Origin: a virus
IMG/VR virus record: IMGVR_UViG_3300040801_001819
Coordinates: 1-64,000 of that record
Strand: one strand, 5' to 3'
DNA length: 64,000 nt
Below, piece by piece: positions 44,752-52,600 of the stretch (its first letter is position 1; every line of letters begins with the position of its first letter). A program made the translations under genes and the position numbers. Below the pieces are notes generated by a model. That model saw only the letters and a program-made list of their open reading frames with translations, searched no databases and had not been told where the DNA came from.

Positions 44752-47100
44752 CTATATCGTACCGCTCTTTTCCCATCCTGCTTTTCTCATTGCTTTGTTC
44801 CAATTTTCATCTAAAAATGGATCATCATGGAAGTGATTAATAGGATCTTCTATCTTATTCTCTTCAAATTTATCTACGTACCTTTTTCTATCCTCTCTAA
44901 GAATCATAACCATATCCATTGCTGAAACTCTATCCGTATTTATATCAGGATTCCAAGCAATAGCTTCTTTTATATAGCCAATACTTCTTATTCTTCTGAG
45001 GTTAGGTACGCTAACAAGGTCAGTATCACCAGTTTCTTCATTAAAAACCTCAAGTTCGTATTGGGATAACATCCATTGTCTTTGTAAGGTTTTACCAAGC
45101 TTGATGACTTCAGCAGTTGTTCTAGTACCTTTAGATCTATTACCATATAATGTTGATTTAATAATTTCCATATCCCTAAGTATCTCCGGACTATCAGCTA
45201 ATAAATGCAATGCATTCTTATTTGAAAAGTAAGTAAATAAACCCTTAAGGTTATTCTCATAATTAGCTTGGGCATTGTAGAACTGCGTAAGTCTTAAGCA
45301 CTGCTCGTAAAAACTGTCTGCTAATACTGGTCTGCCAGTATATTCTGCTACAATCTTATCTGTCCACAAATCAAATACAAATATACTTGCCAAGGATCCA
45401 CCAATTGTATAATCATTATCAATAGGGTCAATTCCTGCTATGTATCTGTTTTGAAATACTCTGCCATCTCTATCTTTTTGTGGCATCTCAAATATCTCAA
45501 CTGCTCCATCAGATGTAGCTCCTTTTACTTTATAAGGATATTCTCTAATTGGGATTAAGTCTTGATCAACTTCCCATTTTACAAATCCCTTTTCATCATA
45601 TGTTAAATTACCAACCCAATGTTCATCAACGAAGCTTTGTAATCTTGGTAATATATCTTCTAAGTAATCTCTTAAGTCTGCAACAGGAAATGCTGTACCC
45701 TGTGTACGCATAATTGCTTCCTGTGGTGTTATAGGTTCCTCAGCTTTCTTTTGTATAATTGCATTAGGATCACTAGATCCGTACTTAACAATTGCTCTTG
45801 CTTTATTGATTTCAATTAAGGCGCCTATTACATCGCTATTTCCATTCTTATCATACTTACCCGTATAGTTTAAATATGTTCCAAAGAAAAATGCGCATTC
45901 ACCTTTTCCAAAAGCATTTCTATCAAACACGTTAGGCATTGAATAGATGTTATGTCCTGCTGAGTTATAGAATATTTCTTCTAATCCCTCAAAGGCTCCA
46001 CCTTCAACACCACCGGTACCACCTGCCATCATGAATCCAAACGCATATCCGGATTCTTCAACTGAAGGTCTAGCAATACCCCAAGCAGTAAGGAAGTCAT
46101 CAAATTTACCTGCTTCTTCCCAGAGTACTAACGCACCCCTTTTACCCCTGGCCTTTTGTGCATCATTCTTTAATGTAACACCGAGAACTTCATTTAGAAC
46201 CCCTACCTCAGTACCAGTTCTTGTGTCTTTGCGCCCCATTCTCCAGTGCATGTCATTTAAGGAATCTTTTAATGAGCGTATACGAGGAAATGGAGTGTGT
46301 GAGGCGCAGAAATCTATTGTTGAGACAAACTTATTTAGTATCCCATCCTTAGTTAAGTATTCCTTTTCATTTGCTATTGCAAAAGACTTAACTTTACTTC
46401 TTGATTTAGTTCTGTCACCTAAGATAAAATTCTTAGCTAACATGGTGCTTGCCTTTACAGAATATCCACAACCCCTTCTTTTTAGATTGGCCCCATGCAT
46501 ACCATGTGCTCTTGCTATTTCTACGTAATGATAGAACCAGTAATCTGCATCATACACAAAAGGAAACGCTTCAACTCTGTCTGATTGTTTTGTTCCGTCA
46601 ACAACTTCTGCTCTTAATAATGGCGCGTAGTTTAACTGAAAATAATAATTACCAGGTATCCATTCACCATCGCTTTCTCTTATATATCCTTCTCTGCAAC
46701 GTCTAGCTTCTTCAGCCCAGAACTTATAATACTCAGAGTTTGGATTCTGATTTGGAAACAACTTTGTATAACATCCGTGTTTCTCAAAATGAATAGCAGC
46801 AGGTCTAAAATACTCCATGTCTTCTAAGACATGCGGATTAGTAAGATCAACAGCTATCCTTCCATTAGGATCTAATTTTCTTACAGACATATTTGGATCA
46901 TCAGACTTTAATGGCAAGAGAGGATTCTCCCATCTTTCTAGATCCTTAAGCCTAGGCCTTGTAGGGCTGGCTAAGTTTTGAATAAACTGAATTGAATCTA
47001 TATCAGCTAAGAGGTCATCTCTTTCTTCCCTCTTCATTCCAATAAGCAACTCCTCAGTTAACTCTGTCTGTGTTTCATTAAATTCCCTCATTGGTATCAA
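44752..47100 (-). CDS. terL: terminase large subunit
   Basis: 782 aa. It has a Walker-B-like LVLWEEAGKF and a nuclease Asp cluster (IAGIDPIDND), and lies upstream of the portal. Confidence 0.75.
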   Translation of the reverse strand: MIPMREFNETQTELTEELLIGMKREERDDLLADIDSIQFIQNLASPTRPRLKDLERWENPLLPLKSDDPNMSVRKLDPNGRIAVDLTNPHVLEDMEYFRPAAIHFEKHGCYTKLFPNQNPNSEYYKFWAEEARRCREGYIRESDGEWIPGNYYFQLNYAPLLRAEVVDGTKQSDRVEAFPFVYDADYWFYHYVEIARAHGMHGANLKRRGCGYSVKASTMLAKNFILGDRTKSRSKVKSFAIANEKEYLTKDGILNKFVSTIDFCASHTPFPRIRSLKDSLNDMHWRMGRKDTRTGTEVGVLNEVLGVTLKNDAQKARGKRGALVLWEEAGKFDDFLTAWGIARPSVEESGYAFGFMMAGGTGGVEGGAFEGLEEIFYNSAGHNIYSMPNVFDRNAFGKGECAFFFGTYLNYTGKYDKNGNSDVIGALIEINKARAIVKYGSSDPNAIIQKKAEEPITPQEAIMRTQGTAFPVADLRDYLEDILPRLQSFVDEHWVGNLTYDEKGFVKWEVDQDLIPIREYPYKVKGATSDGAVEIFEMPQKDRDGRVFQNRYIAGIDPIDNDYTIGGSLASIFVFDLWTDKIVAEYTGRPVLADSFYEQCLRLTQFYNAQANYENNLKGLFTYFSNKNALHLLADSPEILRDMEIIKSTLYGNRSKGTRTTAEVIKLGKTLQRQWMLSQYELEVFNEETGDTDLVSVPNLRRIRSIGYIKEAIAWNPDINTDRVSAMDMVMILREDRKRYVDKFEENKIEDPINHFHDDPFLDENWNKAMRKAGWEKSGTI

Positions 47101-47632
47101 ATATTCCTACAATCTTATTGCCAGATTGGGCTTTTAATTCTTTTTCCTTTATAATCTCCTTTTCAATTTCATTAAGAGCTTTAATTAGCTTTGGTATTTT
47201 TTCAACAGAAGCTGTTATCTTGTTAATGTCATGAATAGGTTTATTTGTTCTTAAATCTCTCTCATTGATATCAATAGTATCTAAGAAAGATGATATTTTT
47301 TCAATTACACCACGAGTACTTTCTAATAATTTAGTGCTAGTTGTCTCAGACAATCTCTTGTAATAAACTATTGCTTCATCTATATACTTAGGCTTTATCC
47401 AATCTTCTCCTAAGTCTATATCTAAGCAGACCTGATCATGTCTTTCTTCTTCATCAAGTATATACATATAATCAGATCTTTCATCTGCCATATAATACAC
47501 ATAAGACAACTCTTGAGTTGCCTGAAACTTGTCTTTGGATTTATCACAATCCCATATTTCCCTAAAAGGCTTAATCATTAACGCTTGTGGCGAAAATGTA
47601 ACCTTATTGTTTACAATTTCAAATACATTCAT
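47078..47632 (-). CDS. hypothetical protein upstream of terL (possible small terminase subunit)
   Basis: Position only; it overlaps the terL start by 23 nt. Confidence 0.3.
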   Translation of the reverse strand: MNVFEIVNNKVTFSPQALMIKPFREIWDCDKSKDKFQATQELSYVYYMADERSDYMYILDEEERHDQVCLDIDLGEDWIKPKYIDEAIVYYKRLSETTSTKLLESTRGVIEKISSFLDTIDINERDLRTNKPIHDINKITASVEKIPKLIKALNEIEKEIIKEKELKAQSGNKIVGIFDTNEGI

Positions 47633-47653
47633 TTCTTTCCTCTCTTTTTATTG

Positions 47654-47727
47654 TGGTATTAAATGGAATCGAACCATTGACACCCCACGGCTTCAACATG
47701 GTGCTCTACCTACTGAGCTATAATACC
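47654..47727 (-). tRNA. tRNA-Phe (anticodon GAA)
   Basis: Hand-folded cloverleaf on the minus strand. Acceptor GGTATTA/TAATACC; D arm GCTC-AGTAGGTA-GAGC; anticodon arm CCATG-TTGAAGC-CGTGG; T arm AATGG-TTCGATT-CCATT. No encoded CCA. Confidence 0.8.
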
Positions 47728-47944
47728 AAATAACAGTGGGCGAGGAGTATTTTTTGACAACTTTGCCTCCCCGCGAATCACTGTTGATGTTACACAGGCG
47801 CCGCATCTTAACCATATTTTACAACTATAGCTTGCGGCATTCTGTGTTGATTTTAATACTGTTGCAGGTTACAATCCGACTGTAACGCACAATGCTTTCA
47901 CATTAGCTCTGCCACCTGAGACTTACTGCATTAGATTTTATTAG

Positions 47945-48017
47945 TAGCGTGTCTCAGATTTGAACTGAGGATCTCTGGGATATGAACCCAGCGAGATGGC
48001 CGCTTCTCTAACACGCA
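47945..48017 (-). tRNA. tRNA-Met (anticodon CAT), initiator-like
   Basis: Hand-folded. D stem GAGA/TCTC; anticodon arm CTGGG-TTCATAT-CCCAG; T arm CTCAG-TTCAAAT-CTGAG. Acceptor positions 2-7 pair, while 1:72 is U-U. It abuts the HNH stop codon. Confidence 0.75.
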
Positions 48018-48377
48018 TTATTTTATTATATCTTTATACCAACCAAATTGTTCTGCTGTCTTTAATAAATGGCAATTAGCACATAATACTTGACATTTCT
48101 CTATTTCTTCTTGTATTACTATTAACTTACAACTAGAATGCATTAGTTTAGTTATATTTTTTTCTTTATCTCTTAAATGATCAAACTGCAATACAATTGG
48201 ATTAGATTCACCACATTTAACACAGTTATTTTCTTTCAAATAATCCCAGCAATATTGCCTTAATATTAGATTCTGTTTCCTTTTACGAATACTATTTCTA
48301 AGTTTTATTGCTTTTTTATTTTTCTGATAATGCTTTCTTGCAGCAGAATTTTGATCTTCCTTATTCTTATAACCCAT
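48018..48377 (-). CDS. HNH endonuclease
   Basis: CVKCGESNPIVLQFDHLRDKEKNI...LCANCHLLKT shows the CxxC...DH...N...CxxCH pattern. Confidence 0.8.
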   Translation of the reverse strand: MGYKNKEDQNSAARKHYQKNKKAIKLRNSIRKRKQNLILRQYCWDYLKENNCVKCGESNPIVLQFDHLRDKEKNITKLMHSSCKLIVIQEEIEKCQVLCANCHLLKTAEQFGWYKDIIK

Positions 48378-48387
48378 AGTTCATGTA

Positions 48388-48416
48388 AATATATGAAAAA
48401 AAAGGCCCACTGTCAA
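48388..48416 (-). promoter_or_regulatory. TTGACA-N17-TATATT(TACA) promoter upstream of the HNH gene, overlapping a weak terminator hairpin
   Basis: The minus strand reads TTGACA GTGGGCCTTTTTTTTCA TATATT TACATGAACT ATG. Confidence 0.5.
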
Positions 48417-48541
48417 GTAGGCCTATCATCATCTTTTGTGATGTTTATTAATCTTCGTCGCCTTTAACAGTTTCCGGATCAATAACTTCTATCTCTTTTT
48501 CAGATTCATCCTCTAAACCTAATGGAGGAATTTTTCCTAAA

Positions 48542-49114
48542 TTATTTTTCATTTTTTAACCCTTTTGTGTCTACGATATAATCTACATCTCTTTCTGAGA
48601 TCCTTATATACTCAACATCATTAATAACTACTACTGGCATTTCGTATGCAAACTTAGCATCAACCTGCCTATTCATTCCTCCCTCAATTCTTCTTTTAAA
48701 GTTTTCAACATTGATTTTAATTTCCATTCCTTTACACACTTGTTGACAGTGTGGACCAACTTCCATAACTTTCTGTATTGTAGAAAAGTCTTGTTCTAAG
48801 TCTGTACTACCATCAGCACCGAAAGATGCTGTTGGTAAATACAAACCTGATTCATTGGTTAGTTTGTTTCTTCGCGCTGTCAAAAACATGGTATTGAACA
48901 TTGGCTCAGTACCTTCTGGTAAAGGATATTCTTTAAGAGATGCTTCATATAACACCTGCTTAACTTGAGCTTCAGCTGATAATATCTCAGAAGAGTCTTC
49001 TACAAGACCAGCAGTTCCTCTTTTAGATTTATCACGCGTAGTGAAAAAATCTTTATGAACCTCCTGACTATGAGCTTTTTGCTTTTGTAATTCTACATCC
49101 TTTTTTACATCCAT
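48542..49114 (-). CDS. GroES/gp31-like co-chaperonin candidate with an N-terminal extension of about 70 aa
   Basis: Residues ~75-185 track the GroES layout. [22 protein letters not shown] resembles [32 protein letters not shown] resembles [17 protein letters not shown] resembles [24 protein letters not shown] resembles EEVLIMSESDILAIV. Confidence 0.45.
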   Translation of the reverse strand: [190 protein letters not shown]

Positions 49115-49329
49115 TATTTTCCTGCTTTTGGCGTTACAACTTTCTTCTCAGGTTTACTTGCTTCCTTGTCTTGAGCTGCAATCTTTTCCTGAATTTCTTT
49201 TTGATTCTTCTCGTGCATTTCAACAATCATACCTAGTTGATCTAATTCCCTTAATATAACAGAAATTTCTTCTAATGTGTAGACTCCTTCTCTTTGGGCC
49301 TTGTCTATTGCCGTAATAAGTGTTTTCAT
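49114..49329 (-). CDS. hypothetical protein (71 aa)
   Basis: Track ORF with a 1-nt junction to the downstream gene. Confidence 0.5.
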   Translation of the reverse strand: MKTLITAIDKAQREGVYTLEEISVILRELDQLGMIVEMHEKNQKEIQEKIAAQDKEASKPEKKVVTPKAGK

Positions 49330-49379
49330 AATTTGTTTTAAATTTATTGTGTAAATATACTAATTAATTTTACTAATTC

Positions 49380-49646
49380 CTAATTTATTTCTTTTTTTTT
49401 ATTCTCTTGAATCTTATTATACAGAAAGTAGCTTGCGTATAGCTTCCCTAGCGCAGGAAATGTAAAGTTAGTCTTAAGCTTAGAGAACTCTTCTCTAGTT
49501 AAGTCATCTTTTATAGTAAGAGCATTATTAATAACTCTTACGAATTCAAACTGACTACGTACTATCTCTCTAACTTCAGATACGGTTAATCCATATTTAT
49601 CTGCAAGCTCTTTAAGCTTTAAAAGATCTGCTTTACTTTCCCTCAT
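49380..49646 (-). CDS. hypothetical protein (88 aa), possible HTH
   Basis: Track ORF with an HTH-like KYGLTVSEVREIV segment. Confidence 0.45.
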   Translation of the reverse strand: MRESKADLLKLKELADKYGLTVSEVREIVRSQFEFVRVINNALTIKDDLTREEFSKLKTNFTFPALGKLYASYFLYNKIQENKKKEIN

Positions 49647-50016
49647 CTATTTCAAAATTGAATATAAGTTTAAATCCATCCTCTGTCATATTTGGTATAA
49701 GCACTGGATTGATTATATTTCCTTTCATTATTACTCCCTTCTTCCTGAGTGATGTCAATAGATTATTAAATACCTTTTGACTCATTCCTCCTAAATCTCC
49801 TCTTATTTGATTTCTAGTGTCTGTTGCAAATAGCAATTTATTTACTAAATCTTTGTTCTTAACCTCTCTTGATAGTTCATATTTATAATACAACAGAAGT
49901 GCAAGTGCGTCAATTTCCTTTTGCCTTAGCTTATGGTAAGGTTTAAGGAACTCTAGCCAGTATTTAAATATCTCTCTCTTCGAGGTCTTTATTCTTTTTA
50001 CATTTATGTTGTTCAT
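49633..50016 (-). CDS. hypothetical protein (127 aa), possible winged-helix DNA binder
   Basis: MSQKVFNNLLTSLRKKGVI resembles a wHTH recognition region. Confidence 0.4.
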   Translation of the reverse strand: MNNINVKRIKTSKREIFKYWLEFLKPYHKLRQKEIDALALLLYYKYELSREVKNKDLVNKLLFATDTRNQIRGDLGGMSQKVFNNLLTSLRKKGVIMKGNIINPVLIPNMTEDGFKLIFNFEIDEGK

Positions 50017-50233
50017 TCATTTCTATTTGTATATGCAATGTAACTTCCGGTGAGTCATTTTCTCCAGTATAGTTCATAGAAACTTTATATCTATCCTCTA
50101 CTTTATTAATTGCATTTATTACTTTATAAATCCTATCAGCTTTATCTTCAAGATATTCCATATCAACTGAAGTGTAAGCGTATCTTAATACCCCATTACT
50201 ATCCCATTGGTTTAGTTCTAAAAGTTTTTTCAT
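49964..50233 (-). CDS. hypothetical protein (89 aa)
   Basis: Track ORF, co-oriented with neighbours. Confidence 0.45.
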   Translation of the reverse strand: MKKLLELNQWDSNGVLRYAYTSVDMEYLEDKADRIYKVINAINKVEDRYKVSMNYTGENDSPEVTLHIQIEMNEQHKCKKNKDLEERDI

Positions 50234-50235
50234 AA

Positions 50236-50628
50236 TTAGTCTTTTTTATCTAAAAACCTTTCTCCATACTTTTCTTCGTACATATCTTCCCACTCAGTAA
50301 TATGAGCTTCTGCTAGATCTGTGTTTCCACAATCTACACAGTATGGAACAACCGCTTTGTCCTTAGTGCTAATTGCTCCATCCTTTGGAAATGAAATTTC
50401 TTTAATGTGCAATTTTAGACAAGTCTTGCAATATGTCACTGGCACGTTGTTGTAATCCTGCTTTTTTGTTATCATGTTTAATAATTTTAAATCGTTAATA
50501 ATGTCAGTGTCATACACTGGAAATGGTGCCATCATATTGGCATGCTCTCTGCGTTCAATTTCTTTAGTTAGGTCTTTCATTGGTTTATAATTTAATAGCA
50601 CATCCTGTTGTAAGGATTGTTCCAGCAA
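50236..50628 (-). CDS. hypothetical Cys-pair protein (CKTC...CVDC)
   Basis: Track ORF. The likely true start is Met17 at nt 50580, just after the GroEL stop. Confidence 0.45.
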   Translation of the reverse strand: MLEQSLQQDVLLNYKPMKDLTKEIERREHANMMAPFPVYDTDIINDLKLLNMITKKQDYNNVPVTYCKTCLKLHIKEISFPKDGAISTKDKAVVPYCVDCGNTDLAEAHITEWEDMYEEKYGERFLDKKD

Positions 50629-52147
50629 CTGAAGCGGCGTTTTCTAATGCAACTCTTGTTACTTTCTTTGGATCAATAATACCAACAACTATCATGTCTT
50701 CGTATTTAGCATTTTTAGCATCATACCCAAGTCTTCCATTAGTTTTATGCCTATTGATACTTGAAGTAACAACGTCTCCATTGATTCCAGCATTTTCACA
50801 TATAGTAAGTATTGGAGCCTTGCAAGCTTCTTTAAGGATGTTAATTCCTTTTTGCTCTGTCTCATGCTTAACATCTTGAATAAAGTCAATAGCATTAAGC
50901 AGTGCAATTCCTCCGCCAGGTACAATACCTTCTTCTAGCGCAGATATGACAGCTTCTTTTGCGTCAATAACTCTATCCATTTTTTCTTTCATTTCAACTT
51001 CTGAATTTCCTCCAACATAAATTACAGCAATACCACCAGATAGTTTTGCAATTCTATTTGATAATTGAGTTTTATTAAACTCTGATTTCTCTAATTTTAT
51101 TTTACCTTGTAGTTCGGAGACTCTATCTTTGATTTCTTTCTCATCTCCTTTAGCACCAACTATAACTGTTGATCCTTGAGTTACTGTAACTGAATCTGCT
51201 TGACCTAAGTAGGTACCATCCAGTTGGTTTATAAATTCTGATTTACATACTATGCCTCCGGTTTGGTATGCCATATCTTGTAGTATTTCAGCTCTTTGGC
51301 TTCCGAATCCTGGAGTCTTAACGGCTACAACTTGCGCTCCTCCTCGTGTTTTGTTTATCACTAACGTTGCAAGTGCTTGTCCTTCAATGTCTTCCGCCAC
51401 TATTAGTAACGGTCTTCCTACCTTCGTTGTTTGTTCTAATGTAGGCATTACATCCTCAACAGTAGTTAACTTACCATCCACCAACATAATATATGGGTCC
51501 TTATAAGTCACTTCCATTGTATCCGGATTAGTAGAGAAATAAGGTGAGACCATACCTCTATCAAATTGCATTCCATCTACCACGTCTATATAAGTAGTTT
51601 GGCCTTGTCCAGCTTCTACGGATACTCCTCCTTCTCTGCCTACTTTTCCGAAGGCTTCTGCCACTAATTCTCCAATCTCAATATTGTTATTTGCAGATAC
51701 TGTGGCAACTTGTTTAATCATTTCTGAATCAGTATCAACAGGAATAGCAATCGAATTTATATATTCAACTGCCTGCTTTACACCGAAATCTATCCCCTGC
51801 TTTAATTCATTTGCATCATATCCACCTGCAACAAGTTTTAATCCATGATTAAGTATACACTGAGCTATCACAGTAGCAGTAGTAGTTCCATCACCTGATC
51901 CTTGTTCAGCCTGTTCAGCTACATCTTTCATTAACTGCACACCCATTGCTTCATACCTATTTTCAACTGTCACGTTTTTTGCGACAGTTACTCCATCCTT
52001 TGTTATGATAGGCAGCATGTCTGGCCCCCTATCTATGATAACATTCTGACCCTTAGGCCCTAATGTAATCTTTACTGCATTAGAGAGAGTATCCACACCT
52101 CTCTGTATACTCTCTCTTGCTTCTCTCCCGTATTTAATATTCTCCAT
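50585..52147 (-). CDS. groEL: chaperonin GroEL/Cpn60 homolog (phage-encoded, 520 aa, no C-terminal GGM tail)
   Basis: Contains YGREARESIQRGVDTLSNAVKITLGPKGQNVII, ITKDGVTVAK and the ATP-site motif GDGTTTATV. It is co-linear with GroEL over its full length. Confidence 0.92.
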   Translation of the reverse strand: MENIKYGREARESIQRGVDTLSNAVKITLGPKGQNVIIDRGPDMLPIITKDGVTVAKNVTVENRYEAMGVQLMKDVAEQAEQGSGDGTTTATVIAQCILNHGLKLVAGGYDANELKQGIDFGVKQAVEYINSIAIPVDTDSEMIKQVATVSANNNIEIGELVAEAFGKVGREGGVSVEAGQGQTTYIDVVDGMQFDRGMVSPYFSTNPDTMEVTYKDPYIMLVDGKLTTVEDVMPTLEQTTKVGRPLLIVAEDIEGQALATLVINKTRGGAQVVAVKTPGFGSQRAEILQDMAYQTGGIVCKSEFINQLDGTYLGQADSVTVTQGSTVIVGAKGDEKEIKDRVSELQGKIKLEKSEFNKTQLSNRIAKLSGGIAVIYVGGNSEVEMKEKMDRVIDAKEAVISALEEGIVPGGGIALLNAIDFIQDVKHETEQKGINILKEACKAPILTICENAGINGDVVTSSINRHKTNGRLGYDAKNAKYEDMIVVGIIDPKKVTRVALENAASVAGTILTTGCAIKL

Positions 52148-52388
52148 CTTGTATCTTTTCTTCTAGTTCGTTAATTGATGAGACTTCACCTTCGTATATT
52201 AATTTTCTTTCTGTTGCTTCAGTATATATGATCTGTACGTTTCCAGTATAGTAGTTCATTACTATTCTTAATTCACAGATGTTTCCTTCTCTATCTTCTC
52301 CTGTTGCCGAGTAACCACTTTGTTTTACTTTTTGATTTCTTCTGTCAGGCATAAAACCTAACATTACAATTTCTTCTGCTGTTACCAT
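52134..52388 (-). CDS. hypothetical protein (84 aa)
   Basis: Track ORF, co-oriented with neighbours. Confidence 0.45.
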   Translation of the reverse strand: MVTAEEIVMLGFMPDRRNQKVKQSGYSATGEDREGNICELRIVMNYYTGNVQIIYTEATERKLIYEGEVSSINELEEKIQDGEY

Positions 52389-52600
52389 TTATCTATTGGA
52401 CATGTACATTCATCACATTTTGTTTTCGCGGCCAGTATGCAACCACACTTGCCACATCTTCCTAGTGCTGTCTTGAACTCACATTCATTACATATATCCA
52501 TTCTAGATTGATTTCTCTCCATTATCTCCTTGGATAATAACCCTAGTTTGCTCTTCCCTAGGTTTGAGAACCCATTCGCTACTTCGTCTATCTTGCCCAT
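52382..52600 (-). CDS. small Cys-rich protein (CNEC...CGKCGC...CDECTCP)
   Basis: Track ORF with a zinc-ribbon-like Cys pattern. Its N-terminus overlaps the upstream ORF, so the start may be internal (MERNQ.. or MDICNEC). Confidence 0.45.
   Translation of the reverse strand: MGKIDEVANGFSNLGKSKLGLLSKEIMERNQSRMDICNECEFKTALGRCGKCGCILAAKTKCDECTCPIDKW

Follow-up and report, generated by a model that had tools for sequence, protein, structure and literature searches.

Whether a single phage encodes both halves of a group I chaperonin, the GroEL cage and the GroES-type co-chaperonin acting as its lid, is the question raised by a 64-kb stretch of viral DNA (hereafter, the window), given as one strand and corresponding to positions 1-64,000 of the IMG/VR record IMGVR_UViG_3300040801_001819. 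An original prediction, made from the sequence itself, had recognized in it a GroEL gene and, about 1.5 kb away, a divergent candidate for a GroES- or gp31-like protein. Both open reading frames (ORFs), encoding proteins of 520 and 190 amino acids (aa), respectively, are found at the positions given by that prediction, on the minus strand and 1,470 nt apart, and every motif quoted for them is present (Table 1). The window is assigned to a marine crAss-like (Crassvirales) phage, because its large terminase (TerL) matches those of crAss-like phages and its 499-aa major capsid protein (MCP) matches the major head protein of Cellulophaga phage phi14:2, verified by mass spectrometry (47% identity, E 1e-151). 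In our assessment, this phage probably, albeit by no means certainly, carries a two-part group I chaperonin, composed of a canonical, ATP-driven GroEL and a 190-aa divergent lid of the GroES family, descended from the protein known in the crAss-like phage crAss001 as Gp15.

The 190-aa protein and the GroES family

At E<=1e-30, 36 homologues of the 190-aa protein were retrieved, which show a mean column identity of 57% and range from 186 to 201 aa in length. In an AlphaFold2 model based on the alignment of these 36 sequences, two helices (residues 3-29 and 34-60) precede a beta domain that starts at residue 75. When the model is compared with the PDB using Foldseek, GroES/Cpn10 chains occupy all of the top 30 places (target template modelling (TM) score 0.58-0.73, E 1.1e-4 to 2.6e-2), T4 gp31 (1g31_A) follows at rank 34 (E 0.2, target TM 0.54), and the GroES-like domains of alcohol dehydrogenases are placed below gp31 (E >= 0.19). 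Of the two likenesses originally proposed, that to GroES proper (E 1e-4) is closer than that to T4 gp31. Annotated viral co-chaperonins also head the list of matches in BFVD, a viral structure library. The matches there comprise a 'head assembly chaperone protein' of Aeromonas phage 65.2 (E 1.7e-3), whose homology to gp31 is assumed from its name and the phage that encodes it.

At the sequence level, the connection to Cpn10 passes through shorter relatives. The profile of the 190-aa family (A1) retrieved 207 sequences from 1.84e9 representative proteins, most of them 110-150 aa long and covering only profile positions ~69-185. Among 113 such short relatives, 34 match Pfam Cpn10 (best 1.7e-11) and 33 match PHROG GroES. 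One intermediate, P0054, is detected by the A1 profile at 3.3e-16 and by hhalign at 99.1%, and itself exceeds the gathering score of Pfam Cpn10 (32.7 versus 21.1 bits). The alignment of the shorter relatives (A2) pairs with A1 at a probability of 99.8% (E 7.7e-30), and its hidden Markov model (HMM) matches E. coli GroES at 27.5 bits. Run over the 356 ORFs of the window, this HMM has a sole match, the 190-aa ORF (E 4.8e-28), and no second GroES-like ORF was found among them. The top PHROG match of the 190-aa protein is likewise 'co-chaperonin GroES', but at an E value of only 0.14; taken individually, 10 of its 36 close homologues match the same PHROG family (best 5e-4).

The order of GroES elements described in the original prediction, following an extension of about 70 aa, agrees with an unbiased hhalign comparison and with the AlphaFold model. 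Residues 70-181 are colinear with residues 4-95 of E. coli GroES, and G90-L91-Y92-L93 falls on G24-I25-V26-L27, of which the tripeptide I25-V26-L27 is the part of GroES that binds GroEL. Together with P94, these residues form a candidate GroEL-binding motif, in which the glycine is found in all 36 homologues, L91 in 31 (otherwise M, I or V), Y92 in 29 (otherwise F, W or I), L93 in 33 and the proline in 34, positions 91-93 being hydrophobic in 36/36. The mobile loop is lengthened, as had been noted by analogy with T4 gp31, through a 10-residue insertion relative to GroES that comes after the G-L-Y-L motif, model confidence falling below 50 for residues 94-106. A roof beta-hairpin was not found by hhalign, nine residues of GroES ('RILENGEVK') being faced by a gap in the query. 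Further along, about 15 residues are inserted around positions 139-155, and the C-terminal strand motif (14 residues) pairs with EVLIMSESDILAIV of GroES. The likeness to E. coli GroES (PF00166; 1AON chain O) thus extends over the beta-barrel, its colinear elements and the glycine followed by a hydrophobic tripeptide; the differences lie in the roof, the longer loop, the insertion, an added N-terminal extension and the lack of a direct profile match. Since fold, transitive profile homology and anatomy agree, the placement of the 190-aa protein in the GroES family, as a divergent GroES-fold co-chaperonin candidate, is supported.

The N-terminal extension (residues 1-67) is predicted to consist of two long helices and is absent from GroES, gp31 and crAss001 Gp15. 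Eleven of its positions are at least 90% conserved in the 36 homologues (K11, F24, K29, R32, G36, D40, E48, K52, L55, Y56 and S59). No Pfam match at E<=1 lies within it, and two sub-threshold matches, to phrog_6290 (residues 11-29, E 0.44) and to the hVbeta chain 2ij0_E (profile positions 56-108, E 0.19), were treated as chance. An origin by fusion with an HU-like gene, such as the one encoding Gp14 upstream of Gp15 in crAss001, was ruled out, as the extension bears no similarity to the HU-like protein. In a tblastn search of deposited phages, the only match to the 190-aa protein was one of 24% identity in Dulem virus 41, and the extension was not found in any of these genomes. Some entries of the viral database, 146-200 aa long and annotated as co-chaperonins, align over most of the 190-aa model; long co-chaperonin forms as such may therefore not be unique.

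A sister subfamily of 175-192 aa, represented by the loci L060 (2827..3360) and L052 (1050..1628) and by the proteins P0058, P0062, P0068, P0079 and P0091, keeps the helical N-terminal extension and has lost the loop motif of a glycine plus three hydrophobic residues; L060 also has no GroEL at the corresponding site. Its members may be GroES-derived proteins that no longer bind GroEL. L060 suggested that the loop motif might go together with a phage-encoded GroEL, an idea contradicted by another relative, L014, in which the loop is intact and GroEL is missing.

The phage GroEL and its genomic association with the putative lid gene

The 520-aa protein is identified as a true, canonical group I GroEL. 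As originally read, it is a Cpn60 containing GDGTTTATV and TKDGVTVAK, and it matches Pfam PF00118 (Cpn60_TCP1) over residues 21-516 (1.4e-60) and phrog_5725 'chaperonin groEL' (1.3e-146). Its best solved match is 9rwr, an ancestral GroEL of the Fibrobacteres-Chlorobi-Bacteroidetes (FCB) group (2.8e-146), and PDB chains of E. coli and Thermus thermophilus GroEL are matched at ~1e-138. Identity to E. coli GroEL is 46.5%, the reference sequence having been verified through its length and 33 landmark residues. The residues of ATP binding and hydrolysis (D52, D87, T89-91 and D398) are all conserved. The hydrophobic apical groove of GroEL, by which both GroES and substrates are gripped, is kept or conservatively changed along helices H and I (Y199M, Y203, F204, L234M, L237, L259, V263 and V264I).

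Two alterations concern other parts of the molecule. The C-terminus reads ...TTGCAIKL, confirming that the GGM repeat is missing, as had been noticed, and the inter-ring salt-bridge pair R452/E461 is replaced by leucine and asparagine (L447 and N456). The comparison was extended to five GroELs of crAss-like phages (the window, 50585..52147; L056, 44971..46443; L050, 3313..4809; L048, 1975..3567; L003, 6936..8513). The GGM tail is absent and E461 replaced in 5/5, R452 is retained in 1/5 (L003), and A109 and E434 are variable too. Among the phage GroELs compared, pairwise identity amounts to no more than 31-52%. The loss of the tail and the changes at R452/E461 hint at a single-ring or otherwise altered ring-ring behaviour, comparable to that of mitochondrial Hsp60.

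The genes for the two proteins are linked in the genome. A member of the 190-aa family is encoded at 49 loci, of which 40 carry GroEL, eight end too early to tell and one (L014) has none, so that GroEL lies within ~1.5 kb of the family gene in 40 of the 41 informative loci. In 39 of the 40, GroEL is located upstream, flanked on its two sides by a zinc-ribbon gene and by g130. In the remaining one, L048 (1388..3567), it is directly downstream, the gene for a 192-aa co-chaperonin being followed after an 8-nt gap by GroEL, which is the canonical groES-groEL order. L048 harbours the most divergent member of the family (its TerL is 67% identical), and its gene order arose independently, either by rearrangement or by acquisition.

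The slot occupied by the 190-aa gene is itself ancient in crAss-like phages. Profile comparison aligns residues 68-187 of the family with residues 7-123 of crAss001 Gp15 (AXQ62658, 136 aa; 95.8%, E 6.5e-9), and the flanking genes follow the crAss001 order Gp13-Gp14-[Gp15]-Gp16-TerL-portal. The short relatives, moreover, retrieve 51-52 crAss-like records annotated as 'putative 10kDa chaperonin'. Because the profile match is accompanied by matching neighbours (g127/Gp13, g88/Gp14, g184/Gp16, TerL and portal), the 190-aa gene is assigned as the positional and sequence orthologue of this crAss-like 'putative 10kDa chaperonin'. The gap of 1.5 kb between GroEL and the 190-aa gene is accounted for by the five small genes that intervene, recognizable as conserved crAss core genes rather than chaperone genes. 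All genes from GroEL to the 190-aa gene point in the same direction and either overlap or are separated by very short gaps, and a terminator-like hairpin beyond the latter is likely to mark the end of their transcription unit. This tight, co-directional arrangement and the hairpin suggest that the cluster forms a single transcription unit.

Table 1. Positions of the chaperonin genes, their parts and the surrounding features in the window
Feature	Position	Strand	Basis or remark
Major capsid protein (MCP), 499 aa	32750..34249	minus	phi14:2 head-protein match
Large terminase (TerL)	44752..47100	minus	42-45% identity to TerL of crAss001, IAS virus, cr111_1 and others
g184, crAss001 Gp16 homologue	47078..47632	minus	Conserved downstream neighbour before TerL; BLASTP E 1e-30; phrog_16390 3.3e-13
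tRNA-Phe	47653..47727	minus	
tRNA-Met	47944..48017	minus	
HNH endonuclease gene	48018..48377		phrog_2255 1.9e-23
Terminator-like hairpin, 9-bp stem, T8	48403..48424	minus	118 nt past the 190-aa stop; consensus scan and sequence reading
Divergent GroES/Cpn10-family co-chaperonin candidate, 190 aa; crAss001 Gp15 orthologue	48542..49114	minus	Fold, profile chain, synteny
Mobile-loop region, residues 85-111, ~10 residues longer than in GroES	48782..48862	minus	hhalign insertion
G90-L91-Y92-L93-P94, candidate GroEL-binding motif	48833..48847	minus	Conservation and hhalign
N-terminal extension, residues 1-67, two long predicted helices	48914..49114	minus	Model helices 3-29 and 34-60
g71	49114..49329	minus	Between GroEL and 190-aa gene
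g88	49380..49646	minus	crAss001 Gp14 ('protein HU'), E 5e-17
g127	49633..50016	minus	crAss001 Gp13, E 2e-23
g89	49964..50233	minus	Between GroEL and 190-aa gene
g130, 114 aa	50236..50580	minus	Between GroEL and 190-aa gene
Phage GroEL (Cpn60, group I chaperonin), 520 aa, without GGM tail	50585..52147	minus	Pfam, PHROG and PDB matches
Zinc-ribbon protein, 72 aa (CxxC...CxxC...C)	52382..52600		Present in 33 related loci

Proposed mechanism and competing explanations

In the mechanism we propose, GroEL would have been added two genes further upstream within the same co-directional unit, the 190-aa gene still occupying its ancestral slot, and this later addition in the lineage would explain why the pair lies 1.5 kb apart rather than side by side. 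Seven 190-aa subunits would assemble through their C-terminal beta-barrels into a GroES-like dome, each docking its extended mobile loop (G-L-Y-L-P) into the groove along helices H and I of the phage GroEL in its ATP-bound state. The longer loop and the missing roof hairpin would enlarge the cage, as in T4 gp31, and a plausible client is the 499-aa MCP, proposed by analogy with T4 gp23 and gp31.

A number of results weigh against this proposal. Neither the 190-aa protein nor any of its 36 homologues matches Pfam Cpn10 (PF00166) at E<=1, the A1 profile finds neither GroES nor gp31 among PDB sequences, and the direct hhalign comparison of A1 with E. coli GroES is weak (E 0.013); the original prediction passes its own check on Cpn10 or gp31 similarity, as the likeness missing from the direct Pfam scan is clear in the Foldseek comparison and established in profiles linked by intermediates. 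With a mean predicted local distance difference test (pLDDT) score of 68, the model is of only moderate confidence, and a protein of 190 aa with a conserved extra domain is unlike the standard, single-domain Cpn10 of ~10 kDa. The association with GroEL is also incomplete: at L014 (650..2721), the zinc-ribbon gene is followed by a g130 homologue, leaving the site empty, with no GroEL on the 9.4-kb contig, and the co-chaperonin gene occurs without any GroEL in crAss001, L057, L058 and L061. Lastly, the distances among GroELs and among 190-aa proteins co-vary (r = 0.93; partial r 0.69-0.73 given TerL; 0/2000 permutations), but no more strongly than controls (0.69 for GroEL versus portal and 0.69 for g130 versus g88), and co-variation was consequently set aside as evidence.

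The most serious alternative, although we consider it rather unlikely, is that the 190-aa protein is of the gp31 type and works mainly with the GroEL of the host (Bacteroidota), retaining the ancestral role of Gp15, the phage GroEL being an independent accessory that uses the host GroES or no lid. Orthologues are indeed found in GroEL-less crAss-like phages, and in the L014 co-chaperonin the N-terminal extension is retained and the ESGLWLPSASFG loop is intact; a phage GroEL is therefore not strictly needed, and use of the host GroEL is possible. The distribution of phage GroEL is, in addition, patchy, its position differing in L048, phi14:2 and Dulem virus 41, and its groove is near enough to canonical that the host GroES could fit. 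Against this stands the presence of GroEL in the same unit as the 190-aa gene in nearly every informative locus. Wherever crAss-like phages have gained a GroEL, it is located 0-3.2 kb from the co-chaperonin gene, directly adjacent and in operon order in L048, and upstream of the equivalent slot in phi14:2 (annotated groEL, 2.3 kb) and in Dulem virus 41 (3.2 kb). These positions are most simply explained by an ancestral lid gene and by repeated gains or losses of GroEL, each of them no more than a few kilobases away from it. The two roles are, moreover, not mutually exclusive.

More doubtful still is the possibility that the 67-aa helical domain defines a new class of co-chaperonin, in which seven helical hairpins would cap the dome in place of the missing roof hairpins, or the domain would serve as an adaptor for capsid recruitment or for specificity towards the phage GroEL. 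If the adaptor form were true, the phage would possess a folding cage without cross-talk to the host GroES and GroEL, and under the new-class reading as a whole, the sister subfamily devoid of the loop motif would be a GroES-derived protein operating outside the chaperonin cycle.

We regard as improbable that the GroES-like barrel has been repurposed, as a head-morphogenesis, scaffolding or other non-chaperonin factor acting via the N-terminal helices and capping no GroEL. The protein has twice the size of Cpn10 and carries a conserved extra domain, phrog_931 'head morphogenesis' is matched by 37 of the 113 short relatives, and the sister subfamily (the P0058 group and L060) has kept the extension and lost the loop motif. 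GroES-like barrels are also present in unrelated enzymes, and ADH_N (the alcohol dehydrogenase domain) appears among the matches of both the structure search and the Pfam search of the short relatives. In the 190-aa family itself, however, the loop motif varies little or not at all and pairs with the IVL tripeptide of GroES, the fold search ranks genuine Cpn10 chains far ahead of alcohol dehydrogenases, and linkage to GroEL is strong. An accidental likeness to GroES in some unrelated small protein, as the non-significant direct Pfam, PDB-sequence and single-sequence hhalign comparisons might allow, is effectively refuted by 36 homologues at 57% identity and by the concordance of significant fold matches, the transitive chain of Cpn10 profiles, orthology to an annotated co-chaperonin and synteny.

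Genomic context and known chaperonin systems

The window is AT-rich (GC ~33%), and nearly all of its genes are on the minus strand as far as ~56 kb, near which the cumulative GC skew reaches its minimum and both GC and AT skew flip sign. Coinciding with the end of the minus-strand gene run, this flip is probably the border of divergently transcribed modules. A megablast search of the chaperonin region against deposited phages returned no match. Upstream of GroEL, the zinc-ribbon gene (52382..52600) forms the border of the GroEL insertion site. An 84-aa ORF (52134..52388) overlaps the GroEL start and sits where groES would canonically be expected; it was ruled out as the actual co-chaperonin, having no family matches and occurring in only five loci. 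This ORF evolves extremely fast, with 31% identity in the close relative L001 against 90% for GroEL, and is missing from most GroEL-bearing relatives.

On the other side, tRNA-Phe, tRNA-Met and the HNH gene (47653..48377) separate the 190-aa gene from g184 and TerL. The HNH gene beside the tRNAs looks like a recent mobile insertion, since L001 has only ~470 nt at this interval and no HNH gene there. In L057 (12379..15555) and L061 (11425..14703), the match to TerL is broken into two blocks ~1 kb apart, which suggests the insertion of an intron, an intein or a homing endonuclease; in crAss001, a group I intron endonuclease (Gp18) adjoins TerL.

A phage carrying both halves of the chaperonin had been expected to be unusual, an expectation that does not hold. 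GroES is also encoded on 133 of 337 (40%) GroEL-bearing virioplankton contigs, in both gene orders (Marine et al. 2017, PMC5649160), a GroEL is present in 233 deposited phage records, and phi14:2 has the same layout as the window. In the virioplankton survey, co-chaperonins were found by BLAST and conserved-domain searches and treated as parts of GroEL operons; some lacked the roof hairpin, the structural genes of contigs with GroEL preceding GroES resembled those of Cellulophaga podoviruses, and one whole clade was scored 'GroEL only' (PMC5649160). The 190-aa protein differs from the forms described there in having no Pfam Cpn10 match (the survey having used CDD), in lying five genes from GroEL and in bearing an extra N-terminal domain, and it may belong among these 'GroEL only' contigs.

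The cultured marine crAss-like phage phi14:2 (NC_021806) shares the layout of the window, with groEL (g105), small genes, g096 (129 aa), g095, TerL and portal in the same order. The second-best viral fold match of the 190-aa model in BFVD is S0A2F3, an uncharacterised 129-aa phi14:2 protein equated with g096 by length only. Annotated as hypothetical, g096 differs in having no extension and in being barely similar in sequence (E 0.0045), and the two GroELs are 41% identical. The crAss001 Gp15 protein, itself a borderline Cpn10 match (17.7 bits), resembles the 190-aa protein in the profile match across the whole C-terminal domain, in its genomic slot and in the missing roof hairpin. It has no 67-aa extension, and its loop is shorter, with GGII in place of GLYLP and the long conserved tail that follows. 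A length of ~115-140 aa and a start at the barrel are typical of the crAss-like '10kDa chaperonin', as against the 186-201 aa of the present family.

Among other phages, T4 and RB49 encode GroES analogues (gp31 and CocO) in which the mobile loop is longer and the roof hairpin is missing, features believed to give the capsid protein a larger cage. Both features are shared by the 190-aa protein; a difference is that T4 uses the GroEL of its host, whereas the window phage encodes its own. The GroEL homologue gp146 of Pseudomonas phage EL is independent of a co-chaperonin and likewise lacks a GGM tail (PMC7185714). The GroEL of the window differs from gp146 in being near canonical (1e-138 to E. 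coli GroEL), in keeping the GroES-binding groove and in being linked to a co-chaperonin gene. The phage GroEL matches 49 PDB sequences at E<=1e-50, and no chain among them bears the name of a phage chaperonin.

Phage chaperonin pairs being already known, what is new here is the extra N-terminal domain of the lid and the subfamily that it defines. In the searchable literature, we found no dedicated discussion of a crAss-like phage co-chaperonin or GroEL, and as far as that literature shows, both the N-terminally extended subfamily, missed by Pfam, and the link between the crAss '10 kDa chaperonin' and the phage GroEL are undescribed. Current knowledge is not overturned by these findings. They join two annotations hitherto kept separate, that of the '10 kDa chaperonin' of crAss-like phages and that of the phage GroELs of marine viromes. 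The crAss-like phages are among the most abundant in the human gut and are present in the sea too. The extended variant offers a construct for asking how the GroES dome tolerates a second domain. Because the lid family escapes standard domain searches, the number of phage GroELs that function independently of a co-chaperonin may be overestimated wherever phages are scored as 'GroEL only' in surveys.

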